Both the position numbers and the translations under genes were made by a program. A DNA stretch of 64,000 bases from Escherichia coli (GTDB lineage Bacteria; Pseudomonadota; Gammaproteobacteria; Enterobacterales; Enterobacteriaceae), in NCBI RefSeq assembly GCF_024298765.1, contig NZ_CP101210.1; one strand, given 5' to 3'. Every line of letters begins with the position of its first letter. The first letter of the stretch is position 1. The notes under the pieces were generated by a model. It had not been told where the DNA came from and did no database searches. It was given only the letters and a program-made list of their open reading frames with translations. Positions 3,636-64,000 of the stretch are shown here, piece after piece.

Positions 3636-4907
3636 TTAACCTCTATGCTTAATTGTGTTTAACCGGGTGCTAAATTTATGCTCGCCAAACCGCACATCAT
3701 TTTCAGGAATAATGAAAACGCGATAATAGCGGATAAAAACAATAATTGCGGTAATCAGGGCCAGCAGCGCGAAAGTAAAATCGAGAGCGATGATATATTG
3801 CAGGCCGATGTTCGACAGATAACCGGTAATCAGCGGAATAACAAAGTTAGCCAGTCCACCCATCATCATATAAATACTGGTGACTTTGGCTTTGCTTTTG
3901 GGGAAAAACTCTGACATGACCGAAACGCCGAGCTGTAAAATGCCGCCAGCTGCTGAGAAACCGATAACAAAGGCTCCGGCATTACACACCAGTGGAGAAG
4001 GGTACAGGTAGATAATGGCTGCTGTTATTGTTGCCAGTGCAGAGTTAAATACATTAGCCCAGATGGGCCGGACCATTTTTTTCAGTAGTGCGGCAAAAAT
4101 AAAGACACAGACCAACGAGCCCATACTGTAATAAGAGATGGTTTTTAATGCTTCAGCTTCTGACATACCAGCAAAAGCCATCGCATATTTGGGCATCCAC
4201 ACCACAATCACATAAAAGGTCGCGAATGCGGCTACACCGAACAGTACCGATGAAACACCTTCCAGCCAGACTAACGGTTTGCTGTTCATTTGCGGTAATT
4301 CATTAGCTACGCTGGCGTCCACCAACTGGCTGGGGAATTTGCTTTTCAACAGCATCAGCGTGATCAGTACAAACAGAATACCCGGAATAATCAGCCCATA
4401 GCCGTACCAGATGTTATTGAGCAACATATAGCTCACCAGCATTGGGTAGAACATTTGCCCGAATGACACCATCGCTTTAACCAGTATGACCGCCGAACCA
4501 GTGGCTTTCGGAAAGCATTCCATGAGCGCGGGGTAGCCACCCGTATCCAGCGCTGAATTAGCGATACCTACGCACACTGCCAGACAGTAGGCGAGAGTTA
4601 AATTCGGGCAAGCAGGAATACCAAAGAAGAATAGCAGATACATTATTACTGCCATTAATATCACCGCCCGACGACCAAACTTATCGGAGATCACACCGAA
4701 GAATAAAATACTGATCAATCGCCCCAAACCGATACCGGAAATTAAATAGGCAATGCCCGCGTTGTCAGTGGAAAACTTTTCTGCCAAAGATGTCATGTTT
4801 TGGGCAAGCGTAATAACACTAATGCCGTGCAGGAAATAGCTGAAGTAAATACAAAGAACAGCCAGGATAAATGGCGTGCTGAAAGCCTTATTTTGAGACA
4901 TTTTCAC
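3636..4907 (-). CDS. ydiN: MFS family transporter; alternative start at 4901
   Basis: 423-aa polytopic hydrophobic ORF recognised as YdiN; two closely spaced Met codons make the start ambiguous. Confidence 0.88.
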
Positions 4908-5127: not shown

Positions 5128-6342
5128 TTACCCACCCGGAGCGACATTTTCCTTTAGCGAGTGATGCCGCGTTTCTTTGCGGCTGCGTAAGCCGATAAAC
5201 AGCGCCAGTAAAAAGCCGATGGCAGCGATGGCGGTATCGAACCACATAATATCGGCAATACTTCTTTGGGACAGATGAGCCGTAATCAACGGAATAGTAA
5301 AGGTCGCAATACTGCCCGCACTGTAATAGATCCCTGTAGCTTTACCTTTAGCGTAGGGGAAACGTTCAGCCATTAATGTCAGGCCAATTTGCACAACACC
5401 TCCAGCAGAGGTAAAACCAATGACAAAAGCAAATATTATCACCACATAAAATGTGGGATGCAGGCAGACGGTAAACAGAGCAATAAATGAGATAAAGGTG
5501 TACAGCATCAGTAATGTTGTTGGGCGAACGGTATTACGAATGAGTGGAGCGGTAATAAATACACAAAGCAGCGAACCCACGGTGTAGATACTGAGTAGTT
5601 TGATCGACATAGTGTATGACATGCCAGCAACAAATTGTCCGTATTGTGCCAGCCACTGGCTAACCAGATAAAACGTTGCCATTGAGATATAGCCATATAG
5701 GGAATAACTGGCTAAATCGATAATTGAACAGCGATGTTCCGTAGAGCTGGTGGTTTTCTTTATGACAGGTAAGCGACGACCCGGATGGGGTGGGAACGTA
5801 CAACGGCATAAAAACAGAGCGTTAATAAACATAATGCCTGCGGCAATCATAAAGGACCAACCGAACCACAGTTCAGCCCACACTAACAGGCTAATTATTA
5901 GCGGTAATAAAAATTGTCCGCTGGAAACAAATGCTTTAATTAAAATATTGGCTGTCCCAGGTGAGCGTGGAAAAGCTTCCATCAAACTGGGATAGGTGCC
6001 TGCATCGAGAAAACTGTTTGCCATTCCCGCCAGAAAGCCAAAAACATAAGCGATAATGATGTTATTGGTGTGCAGGATGCCAAAAAAGAAGGCCATATAG
6101 CAGCACATCCCGAGCATGATAAAAGGGCGGCGACCAAAGCGATCGGATAATAATCCTGCAAAAAGCAAGACACTTAATCGACCAATGCCCAGTGATGAGA
6201 TAACTATCGAGACGCCCGCGGCATTAGTCTGCCAAAGCGTCTCCAGCGAGGCCATATTCAGGCTCATCAAAATGACGCCCATACCATGCACCAGGTAATT
6301 AAAATACAACCCCAGTGCGGTAGGGTAATAGGGATTTTTCAT
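5128..6342 (-). CDS. ydiM: MFS family transporter
   Basis: 404-aa hydrophobic ORF recognised as YdiM. Confidence 0.9.
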   Translation of the reverse strand: MKNPYYPTALGLYFNYLVHGMGVILMSLNMASLETLWQTNAAGVSIVISSLGIGRLSVLLFAGLLSDRFGRRPFIMLGMCCYMAFFFGILHTNNIIIAYVFGFLAGMANSFLDAGTYPSLMEAFPRSPGTANILIKAFVSSGQFLLPLIISLLVWAELWFGWSFMIAAGIMFINALFLCRCTFPPHPGRRLPVIKKTTSSTEHRCSIIDLASYSLYGYISMATFYLVSQWLAQYGQFVAGMSYTMSIKLLSIYTVGSLLCVFITAPLIRNTVRPTTLLMLYTFISFIALFTVCLHPTFYVVIIFAFVIGFTSAGGVVQIGLTLMAERFPYAKGKATGIYYSAGSIATFTIPLITAHLSQRSIADIMWFDTAIAAIGFLLALFIGLRSRKETRHHSLKENVAPGG

Positions 6343-60199: not shown

Positions 60200-60835
60200 T
60201 TAGATGTCAACTTTCTCTTTGTATTCACAAAGATCTTCAATAATACAAGAGCCACAGCGGGGCTTGCGGGCAATGCAGGTATAACGCCCGTGCAGGATCA
60301 ACCAATGGTGGCAGTCGACTTTAAACTCTGCCGGAACCACTTTCAGTAGCTTTTCTTCTACCTGTTCGACGTTTTTCCCCGGCGCAAATTGAGTACGATT
60401 ACAAACGCGGAAAATGTGCGTATCGACAGCAATAGTCGGCCAGCCGAATGCAGTGTTTAATACGACGTTGGCTGTTTTACGACCTACGCCAGGCAGGGCT
60501 TCAAGCGCAGCACGATCTTCCGGAACCTCGCCATTATGTTGTTCCAGTAAGATACGGCAGGTTTTGATGATATTTTCTGCTTTGCTGTTATAAAGCCCAA
60601 TGGTTTTGATATAGGTTTTCACCCCTTCGACGCCCAGTTCAAGCATCGCTGGAGGTGTATTAGCCACCGGGTAGAGTTTCGCCGTCGCCTTATTAACACT
60701 GACATCGGTCGCCTGAGCGGAAAGCAGTACGGCAATCAGCAATTCAAAAGGTGAACTGAAATTAAGCTCAGTGGTGGGATGAGGATTGTTCTCACGCAGG
60801 CGAGTGAGGATCTCCAGACGTTTTGCTTTGTTCAT
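60200..60835 (-). CDS. nth: Endonuclease III (DNA glycosylase/AP lyase)
   Basis: 211-aa ORF with HhH motif and C-terminal 4Fe-4S Cys cluster. Confidence 0.96.
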   Translation of the reverse strand: MNKAKRLEILTRLRENNPHPTTELNFSSPFELLIAVLLSAQATDVSVNKATAKLYPVANTPPAMLELGVEGVKTYIKTIGLYNSKAENIIKTCRILLEQHNGEVPEDRAALEALPGVGRKTANVVLNTAFGWPTIAVDTHIFRVCNRTQFAPGKNVEQVEEKLLKVVPAEFKVDCHHWLILHGRYTCIARKPRCGSCIIEDLCEYKEKVDI

Positions 60836-61530
60836 CAGACATTCCCTGTTTCACCGTTTGGCAATGCACGTTCGGCAGCTGCTTCAGTACGGCGCTTTTT
60901 CATTCTTTCATCAATCAGGTATTTCCCTGCCAGCATCAGTCCCAGGCCAATAAATGCACCTGGTGGCAGCATCGCCAGCAGGAAAGGGGAGTCGGTGTGG
61001 AAAATCTCCACGCGTAATACTTTTGCCCAGCTACCTAACAGCGCATCTGCACCGTCAAACAACGTGCCATTGCCTATTATTTCGCGTAGTGAACCCAGCA
61101 CGAACATGGCGCAGGTTGCGCCCATACCAATTGAAAAGCCGTCCAGTGCCGAAAGCGCCGGACCTTTTTTGGCGGCGAAGGCTTCAGCGCGGCCCACAAC
61201 GATACAGTTAGTGACAATCAGCGGAATAAAAATCCCTAATGATTGATACAGGCCAAAGGCGTAGGCGTTGATCAGCATCTGTACAGCGCTGACCACCGAG
61301 GCGATGATCATCACGTAAATGGGAATGCGGATCTCGGCTGGCGTCCAGTGACGCAGCGTCGAAATGGTCAAGTTGGTCAGCGTCAGTACCAGCGTAGTCG
61401 CAAGTCCTAAACCCAGGGCGTTGGTGGCAGTGGACGTGACCGCCAGTAGCGGACAAAGGCCGAGCAACTGGACCAGCGCAGAGTTGTTTTTCCACAACCC
61501 CTGAACAATAACGTCTTTAATTTCGCTCAC
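60835..61530 (-). CDS. rsxE: Rsx (Rnf-type) electron transport complex subunit E
   Basis: 231-aa membrane ORF recognised as RsxE. Confidence 0.93.
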
Positions 61531-61533
61531 GCT

Positions 61534-62154
61534 TTATTCTCCACAGGCAGGAAGTTGAGAAAGTTGTGCCGGTAACGTCTGAGCGTACAATCCGGCGCGT
61601 TTTACCGCATTTACCACCGCGCGCGGAGTAATCGTCGCGCCGGTGAACTGGTCGAAATCACCACCATCTTTCTTCACCGCCCAGTGCACATCATCCGCAC
61701 CACTGATTTTTTTACCCGCAAAATGGGTGATCCAGTCAGAAAGGCGCAGTTCGATTTTATCGCCAAGCCCTGGCGTTTCGTGGTGCTCTGTCACGCGCGT
61801 GCCTAGTACCGTGCCGTTAAAATCGGCTCCCACCAGCAGCTGAATCGCACCAGAATAGCCATCTGGCGCGGTTGTTTCCAGAACGGCGGCTACCGGTTTG
61901 TCATCCTGTTTGGCGATGTAAACCCGATGCTCACCTTTACCTAACTCTGGCGCAGTGACCAGATAGCAACTCTGTGCCAGCGCATTGTTATAGCGTTCGG
62001 CTGGCAGCACTTGATCAAATAACGCCTTTTGTTGCAGACTGGCCTGTTCAGCAATTGTCGTTTTGGTCATCTGGTTGATGGCCGCAGTTAACCCTGTAGA
62101 ACCCGCTGCAAATAGTGCCAGTGTAATGCCGTGTTTTCGGATAGTTTTCAGCAT
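61534..62154 (-). CDS. rsxG: Rsx electron transport complex subunit G
   Basis: 206-aa ORF recognised as RsxG. Confidence 0.93.
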
Positions 62155-62157
62155 GGT

Positions 62158-63216
62158 TTACCCTTTGCGATGGCCGTAGACGCGCGGACGCGTGTAGTAA
62201 TCGATCAGAGGAACCGTGATGTTCGCCAGCAGGACGGCAAAAGCCACGCCGTCAGGATAGCCGCCGAAACTGCGGATCAACCAGACTAATAAGCCCGCCA
62301 GCGCGCCGAAAATAAGACGACCACGATTGGTCGTAGAAGCGGTAACCGGGTCAGTCAAAATAAAGAATGCGCCGAGCATGGTCGCTCCAGACAGCAGATG
62401 AATTTGCGGTGCTGCCAGTGTTTCTGGTGAGAACAACCAGCCCAACGTTGCGCATAACGCCAGCGTTACTAAGAAGCTGAGGGGAATATGCCAGCGAATC
62501 GCTTTCTGCCATAGCAACCACACGCCGCCAGCCAGCCAGGCGAGATTTACCCATTGCCAACCAGCGCCCGCCAGAATACCGCTGTAGATCGGATATTGCA
62601 TAATCTGTTCAACCGAATGACCGGCACGAACAGAGGTTTTAAATGTATCCAGCGGTGTCGCCTGACTAATGCCATCAATACCTAAGCGTAGTGTGTTCAT
62701 ATCACCACCACTGGCGGTATGTCCGCTGAAAATAACCTGTATGGCGTCGATAAAACCAGGGATGTTGACCGCAATTCCATGTGGCGGTAACCAGCTGGTC
62801 ATCTGCACCGGGAAGGAGATCAGTAAGACCACATAACCAATCATTGCCGGATTAAACGGGTTTTGCCCCAGACCGCCATACAACTGTTTAGCGATGATCA
62901 CCGCAAACACCGTACCCAGCACGACCATCCACCATGGCGCGAGGGGGGGAATACTTACCGCCAGCAATAAGCCTGTCAGCAATGCTGAGTTATCTTTCAA
63001 CGTTGCGGCTACCGACTGCTTGCGTAGTTTGAGTACGAGAGCTTCGGCTAACAGAGCACTGACCGACGCCAACAGGATCTGAACGAGAGTACCCCAACCA
63101 AAAAACCACAGTTGCGCTGCGATTCCTGGCACGGCTGCGAGCAACACCAACAGCATAATGCGCGATGTCTGGCGCTGGTTATGGGTATAAGGGGAGCTAG
63201 CTATTCTGAATACCAT
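62158..63216 (-). CDS. rsxD: Rsx electron transport complex subunit D
   Basis: 352-aa membrane ORF recognised as RsxD. Confidence 0.93.
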
Positions 63217-64000
63217 TTAGTCCTCGTTTACAACCTTTTGCTGGGCGGCTTTTTTGGCCTGAACGCGGGCAATAGCCGCGGCAACTGCCGCTTTGCGCGG
63301 ATCAACCTGTTCTTCTGGTTCTGCGTTAGCCTGTTGCTGTTCCAGCTTGCGTGCTTTGGCGCGTGCAATAGCCGCTTCGACGGCGACTTTGCGCGGATCA
63401 ACCTGTTCTTCTGGTACCGCATTAGCCTGTTGCTGTTCCAGCTTGCGTGCTTTGGCACGGGCAATAGCAGCTTCGACGGCAGCTTTGCGCGGATCGACCT
63501 GTTCTTCTGGTTCCGCATTAGCCTGTTGCTGTTCCAGCTTGCGTGCTTTGGCGCGGGCAATAGCGGCTTCGACGGCAGCTTTGCGCGGATCGACCTGTTC
63601 TTCTGGTTCCGCATTAGCCTGTTGCTGTTCCAGCTTGCGTGCTTTGGCACGGGCAATAGCGGCTTCGACGGCGGCTTTGCGCGGATCGACCTGTTGTTCT
63701 GGCTCGGCATTAGCCTGTTGCTGCTCCAGCTTGCGCGCTTTGGCTCGGGCAATAGCGGCTTCGACGGCGGCTTTGCGCGGGTCAACCTGTTCTTCTGGCT
63801 CCGCATTAGCCTGTTGCTGCTCCAGCTTGCGCGCTTTGGCGCGGGCGATAGCGGCTTCGACTGCGGTTTTACGTGGATCAGCAACGGTTGCTGCGTCGTT
63901 AGTTTGCTGCAGTTCTGCCTGTTTCGCTCTGGCTTGCGCTTTACGGGCTTCACGTGCTGCAATAATTGCACTGTTATCCGGGCGTTCGCCCGCTTTAATC
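63217..64000 (-). CDS. rsxC: Rsx electron transport complex subunit C, C-terminal portion; start lies beyond the right edge
   Basis: Reverse-strand frame ending ...[10 protein letters not shown]-stop at 63217-63219 directly upstream of rsxD; contains repeated ...[31 protein letters not shown]... units. The ORF-track entry 63228-63971 is in a different frame and is not the gene. Confidence 0.85.
63240..63900. repeat. 96-bp in-frame tandem repeat (32-aa units, about 6.5 copies) inside rsxC
   Basis: Motif TTAGCCTGTTGCTG recurs at about 63326, 63422, 63518, 63614, 63710 and 63806, exactly 96 bp apart, with a few substitutions per unit. Confidence 0.85.

Follow-up and report, generated by a model that had tools for sequence, protein, structure and literature searches.

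RsxC is the NADH-side subunit of the Rsx/Rnf membrane redox complex of Escherichia coli, and Rsx and RseC have an established role in the reduction of SoxR, reportedly described by Koo et al. in 2003. The gene is also the site of a marker used in strain typing. A seven-locus MLVA panel for Shigella and E. coli, which comprises ms06, ms07, ms09, ms11, ms21, ms23 and ms32, is attributed to Gorgé et al. in two studies (PMC4644529; PMC8215070). In both, ms11 has a repeat of 96 bp and an offset of 286 bp. The same primers, GAAACAGGCCCAGGCTACAC (forward) and CTGGCGCTGGTTATGGGTAT (reverse), appear in a paper on poultry, in which the pair, ECMLV2, is given as 'ms11 (rsxC)' (PMC4644529; PMC8215070; PMC11773471). 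Published ms11 alleles of E. coli run from 4.5 to 7 (PMC4644529; PMC8215070). In the typing literature this locus serves purely as a size marker, and the peptide that it encodes is not discussed.

Other MLVA loci also lie in frame within genes, among them CVN004 in tolA and CVN001/ms07 in ftsK (PMC11773471). These likewise affect low-complexity, envelope-associated proteins rich in Ala, Lys, Glu and Gln, in which variation in length is tolerated, but their units, as listed in that paper, are far shorter (15–39 bp) than 96 bp. In Erwinia amylovora, RsxC contains a 40-aa repeat, present in 0–5 copies, which the authors of that study put forward as a VNTR marker (PMC10587187). RnfC of Azotobacter vinelandii ends in a long C-terminal helix, the function of which is not understood according to a review of these complexes (PMC12174285).

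The DNA considered here, referred to as the window, is a stretch of 64,000 nucleotides of E. coli that ends within rsxC. Judged by its sequence, the 96-bp array in this gene is the published MLVA locus ms11, already known and used in strain typing. A literature search on MLVA, Escherichia coli and rnfC returned nothing; the link emerged through searches on the rsxC tandem repeat and on ms11. The best explanation of the evidence as a whole is, very probably, a 96-bp minisatellite, identical with ms11, that lies in frame in the 3′-terminal part of rsxC; its old and constrained units, which change in number by whole copies, make up a C-terminal tail. What is added to the published description of ms11 is modest: the allele in the window has six units, the tract is a tail, and the peptide is old, constrained and found in at least five orders.

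The array and its gene

The 3′ part of rsxC occupies positions 63217–64000 on the minus strand, and consists of the last 261 codons and the stop codon (63217–63219), as identified by translation, by the match to NZ_CP029164.1 and by the family model NF003454. The gene continues past the end of the window. In a DNA search the 901 bases from 63100 to 64000 matched E. coli strain 104 (chromosome NZ_CP029164.1), an isolate from chicken in China, with 100% identity; in that genome the matching CDS is annotated rsxC and measures 2319 bp (772 aa). RsxC of strain 104 scored 871.5 bits against NCBIfam NF003454 (cutoff 345) and 596 bits in a second NCBIfam/TIGR test (NF003454, TIGR01945; cutoff 246), and the gene had been correctly named in the first-pass annotation. 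The Pfam domains of the protein, RnfC_N, Complex1_51K (FMN-binding), SLBB and two 4Fe-4S domains, all lie inside residues 14–450.

The operon order annotated in NZ_CP029164.1 is rsxABCDGE followed by nth, and the window has the corresponding ORFs for rsxD (62158–63216), rsxG (61534–62154), rsxE (60835–61530) and nth (60200–60835), all on the minus strand. The ATG of rsxD follows directly on the stop codon of rsxC, TAA abutting ATG at 63214–63219, and rsxE and nth overlap by one base at 60835; these tight junctions would be consistent with translational coupling. A promoter scan of 62900–64000 found none, and in a terminator scan of the same interval the coding strand had no terminator-like site; nothing here thus points to a regulatory function of the DNA. 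A 'NusA-dependent rsxC termination signal' serves in one study as the model of a weak intrinsic terminator (PMC13192885). It is probably sited elsewhere in or near rsxC, outside 62900–64000.

Tandem Repeats Finder reported a single array of 617 bp at 63264–63880 (minus strand in the sense of the gene), with a period of 96, 6.4 copies, 92% matches, 0% indels and a score of 989. In an independent seed-and-extend repeat search the copies were in register at a spacing of exactly 96 nt. Translation of the minus strand over 63217–63999 gives six 32-aa units, a diverged terminal unit of 28 aa, and then TAA; together the units are residues 553–772 of RsxC in strain 104. About 6.5 near-identical, in-frame 96-bp units at 63240–63900 had been claimed from inspection of the letters, and this description stands. 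The periodicity is present, the 32-aa peptide that was quoted matches the translation exactly, the copy number agrees with both counts, and the coordinates are essentially right, being about 20 nt generous at each end.

In codon register, and reading along the minus strand, unit 1 lies at 63784–63879 (RsxC residues 553–584), unit 2, an …EPEQQV variant, at 63688–63783, unit 3 at 63592–63687, unit 4 at 63496–63591, unit 5, an …NAVPEEQV variant, at 63400–63495, and unit 6, a DPRKVAVE… variant, at 63304–63399. The terminal unit, at 63220–63303 on the same strand, holds a seventh core motif at the C-terminus of RsxC and scored 51.7 bits with the unit profile. There are four single residue substitutions in total among the six full units, and pairwise nucleotide differences among the units of the window range from 2 to 13 positions. 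When units were assigned to DNA types, allowing ≤2 mismatches, the array of strain 104 read A-B-C-C-D-E. Unit 4 is the near-identical twin of unit 3, from which it is 2 nt apart, and the pair marks the most recent duplication in this allele.

With respect to ms11, the reverse primer CTGGCGCTGGTTATGGGTAT has an exact site at 63169–63188 on the plus strand, inside rsxD. The forward primer GAAACAGGCCCAGGCTACAC is exact in strain 104 (position 3912 of locus L001), which is equivalent to position 64011 of the window, so placed that 10 nt separate it from the last base at 64000. The in-silico amplicon of the window allele is 862 bp, or 286 + 6 × 96. Flanking primers, 96-bp unit and 286-bp offset are shared with ms11, as is copy-number polymorphism (4–7 units in 59 genomes); gene, unit and flanks are all alike, with no structural difference.

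The repeat also generates an ORF of 247 aa with a GTG start at 63228–63971 on the minus strand, 2 nt off the frame of rsxC. A long open frame with a start codon might be taken for a genuine overlapping gene, an idea to which we assign almost no probability. The frame is open because a 96-nt unit without a stop in that frame was copied six times, and 15 of the 19 columns that vary between units fall at codon position 3 of rsxC. Database proteins that contain this frame are frameshift chimeras of RsxC. The earlier description of the ORF as spurious was thus correct.

Draft assemblies fare poorly at this locus. A search with three units and the terminal unit returned mostly entries of 68–90 aa named 'RsxC, partial', hundreds of them, some of which represent hundreds of sequences. 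One such fragment lay at a contig end in all four of the places examined, one of them on an E. coli contig of 450 kb. The first-pass annotation had warned that short-read assemblies collapse such regions; the difficulty is real, but the usual failure is a break in the contig rather than a collapse. In practice, short-read assemblies of E. coli break here, variant callers misbehave and annotation pipelines flag pseudogenes. Seven database proteins with RsxC units are chimeric or frame-switched. Some of them are fused to segments that resemble IS1 transposase, DmsC or TRCF, and others of the seven switch into the alternative stop-free frame of the repeat. These entries are probably assembly or sequencing errors, and one is possibly an IS1 insertion.

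Against this background the six-unit array could itself be suspected of being an artefact, expanded or collapsed in assembly. At 617 bp it exceeds the length of short reads, draft assemblies end inside it, fragments that are frame-switched or chimeric have entered the databases, and one genome discussed below may represent a collapse. In the present case such an error is highly improbable: a finished chromosome has the identical sequence, the 772-aa length recurs in independent complete genomes (O157:H7, O145 and others), the reading frame is intact, and the units differ at enough positions that each can be uniquely placed.

Unit number in E. coli and how it changes

Complete E. coli genomes have 4, 5, 6 or 7 full units, corresponding to RsxC proteins of 708/709, 740/742, 772 and 806 aa, which confirms the expectation that copy number varies between strains. 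Genes of 2127/2130 bp with four units occur in EC24, 22AH104, ECE228, K56-43-un and CUVET18-565, and genes of 2223/2229 bp with five units in K-12 MG1655, WCHEC4533, RM9513, AR_0077 and SSGw1. The six-unit gene of 2319 bp is found in strain 104 and O157:H7 F8798, and the seven-unit gene of 2421 bp in an O25b:H4 strain and AR_0086. All 12 of the intact alleles that were decomposed remain in frame, with occasional one-codon insertions (QQQQ). The corresponding in-silico ms11 amplicons of 670/673, 766, 862 and 964 bp represent 4, 5, 6 and 7 repeats, following 286 + n × 96 with +3 or +6 in some, and the range of 4–7 units agrees with the published alleles of 4.5–7.

Allele frequencies were obtained with a query consisting of two repeat-free flanks of 400 bp only, the span from flank to flank being read as allele length. 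The records, 59–60 taken at even ranking steps from about 5,424–5,426 complete genomes, are a sample and not a census. In 59 genomes, four units were present in 7 (12%), five in 40 (68%), six in 5 (8.5%) and seven in 7 (12%), which corresponds to a Simpson D of 0.51 for unit number. An earlier estimate agreed, at about 18/58/10/10% for 4/5/6/7 units. It was derived from alignment classes in a DNA search with the array itself as query; owing to self-similarity that search gave 36,941 'places' and its classes were read from alignment end-points, hence the flank-only search. The six-unit allele of the window is therefore a minority state, which it shares with O157:H7 and O145 strains. In one record, NZ_CP157132.1 (strain UTAK-18), the span was 1345 bp, equal to five units and one extra base, which might reflect either a frameshift or an error of sequencing, within the array or beside it.

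Changes by whole units can be seen when alleles are written as strings of DNA types. K-12 (F-C-G-H-I) and EC24 (F-G-H-I) show a clean difference of one unit. SSGw1 has two adjacent pairs of twin units, compared with one adjacent pair, units 3 and 4, in strain 104. Gain and loss would take place by unequal homologous recombination or replication slippage between units, a route read from these end products. The most extreme case is CFSAN004176 (NZ_CP014583.1), which has a single in-frame hybrid unit at 2560–2900 of locus L003, with a junction inside the core that fuses the first and last units. It has lost 480 bp relative to K-12, and its in-silico ms11 amplicon is exactly 286 bp. PGAP calls the rsxC of this genome incomplete and the adjoining rsxD frameshifted. 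This may be either a natural, near-tailless deletion allele or an assembly collapse.

Since the unit is 32 codons long, the reading frame is kept in every whole-unit change, and because it is always kept an on/off contingency switch is ruled out. A phase-variation locus with high-frequency switching of RsxC might otherwise be imagined for a coding tandem repeat of variable copy number, and an in-frame rsxC deletion has been recorded among the variants of laboratory-evolved E. coli (PMC7696260). With a unit of 96 nt, divisible by 3, no frame shift occurs, and unrelated isolates can have identical RsxC proteins. AR_0086 and an O25b:H4 strain both have WP_000915728.1, and WP_001538789.1 is shared by a human isolate from Greece and a dog isolate from Thailand. 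The units are moreover anciently diverged (dS 0.27–0.62). All of this points to slow change and makes frequent switching extremely improbable. The earlier characterization of the repeat as prone to slippage and recombination holds insofar as whole-unit gain and loss are visible; a fast, neutral slippage tract is at odds with the constrained peptide and with alleles common to unrelated isolates.

Age, constraint and predicted structure of the tail

The concentration of unit variation at third codon positions, noted above, is matched by estimates of substitution rates. When units within a single array were compared, every one of twelve alleles gave a dS of 0.27–0.62 and a dN/dS of 0.03–0.08 (Nei-Gojobori), values that rest on 32-codon units and non-independent pairs. 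For the 440 catalytic codons of these genes, compared among strains, dS was 0.076 and dN/dS 0.039. Unit dS thus far exceeds strain dS, which makes the units much older than the splits among E. coli strains. By the same measure the unit peptide is under purifying selection and as constrained as the catalytic part of the enzyme.

The Pfam domains of RsxC stop near residue 450, and the solved Rnf complexes (8AHX, 7ZC6 and 9ERI) align to the E. coli protein only up to about residue 498. The elongated C-terminal helix of A. vinelandii RnfC in 8AHX also follows the 4Fe-4S domain and aligns with RsxC residues ~441–498. That protein is without tandem units and ends at residue 496; no resolved structure extends as far as the E. 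coli array. The six units and the terminal one form a non-catalytic tail of ~220 residues beyond the FMN and 4Fe-4S domains. When the 332-residue tail was searched against Pfam at E ≤ 10, no family was found, the only hit being a chance match to HlyD_3 (E = 0.52), and the unit profile had no match among PDB sequences at E ≤ 10. The literature found on the RnfC/RsxC tail gives no function, the only remark being that on the A. vinelandii helix.

AlphaFold2 was run on residues 441–772 as a single sequence and gave a pTM of 0.24, at which only the secondary structure is informative. In each unit it placed a helix of 24 residues (PRK…QQAN) and a loop of 8 (AEPEEQVD). The helices, H114–137, H146–169 and onward, are separated by gaps of 8 residues; the mean pLDDT was 73, with helices at about 70–80. 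The start of the helix is basic and the hinge acidic, with a net charge of zero per unit. On this model the unit is an alanine-rich, basic helix of ~24 residues joined to an 8-residue hinge, AEPEEQVD, that is acidic and flanked by proline.

The first-pass annotation had called the tract a linker. This term is not retained, as the array sits at the C-terminus with only the stop codon after it; it is a tail, with no domain beyond. A disordered inter-domain linker was considered and rejected on this ground, and also because of the predicted 24-residue helices and the dN/dS of 0.03–0.08.

The core motif in other Gammaproteobacteria

When a 32-position profile of the unit was compared with 1.84 billion representative proteins, 215 matches were obtained at E ≤ 0.001. 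The long matches are proteins of 641–971 aa with 3–13 matched stretches each. Nine of the ten mid-length and long matches that were scanned carry FMN-binding, SLBB and/or 4Fe-4S domains, and the tenth is a frame-scrambled fragment. The RnfC_N domain was found in only the two full-length matches among those scanned; the seven truncated ones would be RnfC proteins on the basis of domain type and order.

A core, DP(R/K)KAA(V/I)(E/A)AAIAR(A/V)(K/Q)A(R/K)K, occurs in whole proteins and fragments from Salmonella, Klebsiella, Cronobacter, Pluralibacter, Dickeya, Erwinia, Haemophilus and Aeromonas. It is also present in named profile matches from Vibrio vulnificus, Celerinatantimonas, Pseudoalteromonas, Aeromonas caviae and Motilimonas. 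As judged from these alignments, the 18-aa core is common to the RsxC/RnfC tails of at least five gammaproteobacterial orders. It looks specific to these tails, with a copy number that is variable wherever it is present. From one core to the next the spacer measures anywhere from about 13 to >60 residues, and its composition varies by lineage. The repeat of E. amylovora fits this pattern: protein, C-terminal position and core are the same, E. coli having R for K at one position, but the unit is 40 aa instead of 32 and has an Ala/Pro/Gln-rich spacer, AAQAAPAAADKAAPVQQPAAEQ, that differs from the one in E. coli.

Clusters at 90% identity include RsxC proteins of 773, 782, 825 and 1013 aa from Erwinia sp. 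and of 820, 840, 874 and 890 aa from Pseudoalteromonas sp. This spread of lengths within single clusters indicates that variation in tail copies is general and not confined to E. coli.

These comparisons bear on the supposition that the tail is a neutral, disordered spacer, a slippage-prone filler whose copy number drifts freely. Such a view accommodates the tolerance of 4–7 units and the genome with a single hybrid unit, the lack of any Pfam family or solved structure for the tail, and the spacers between cores, which differ wholly in length and composition among genera. It is nevertheless unlikely. The units have a dN/dS close to that of the catalytic part, at 0.03–0.08 versus 0.039, despite 27–62% synonymous difference; the 18-aa core is almost invariant over several gammaproteobacterial orders; and AlphaFold2 predicts regular helices, not coil. 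An old and constrained peptide, with a core found across at least five orders and spacers free to change, suggests that the tail has a function not yet described. E. coli tolerates 4–7 units, and possibly 1, so the dosage of units cannot be critical.

As to what the units of this constrained tail might do, they would act as a tether or docking module, flexible and multivalent, at the cytoplasmic side of the complex, and copy number would set the valency. More specifically, the core DP(R/K)KAA(V/I)xAAIARAKA(R/K)K might be a selected multivalent docking helix that has been re-amplified independently in each lineage with different spacers, a tentative proposal in which we place rather low confidence. 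The partner may be a redox partner, another Rsx subunit or the membrane surface. If the proposal were true, VNTR copy number would tune valency and so the output of Rsx, for example the speed at which SoxR is re-reduced. No description of a docking helix with this motif was found in Pfam, solved structures or the literature.

A further, weakly core-like segment lies at residues 490–509 of RsxC in strain 104, just past the end of the window; its score with the unit profile was only 5 bits. RsxC proteins of Vibrio and others have a similar single segment at the same place. The segment may be the ancestral copy behind the arrays.
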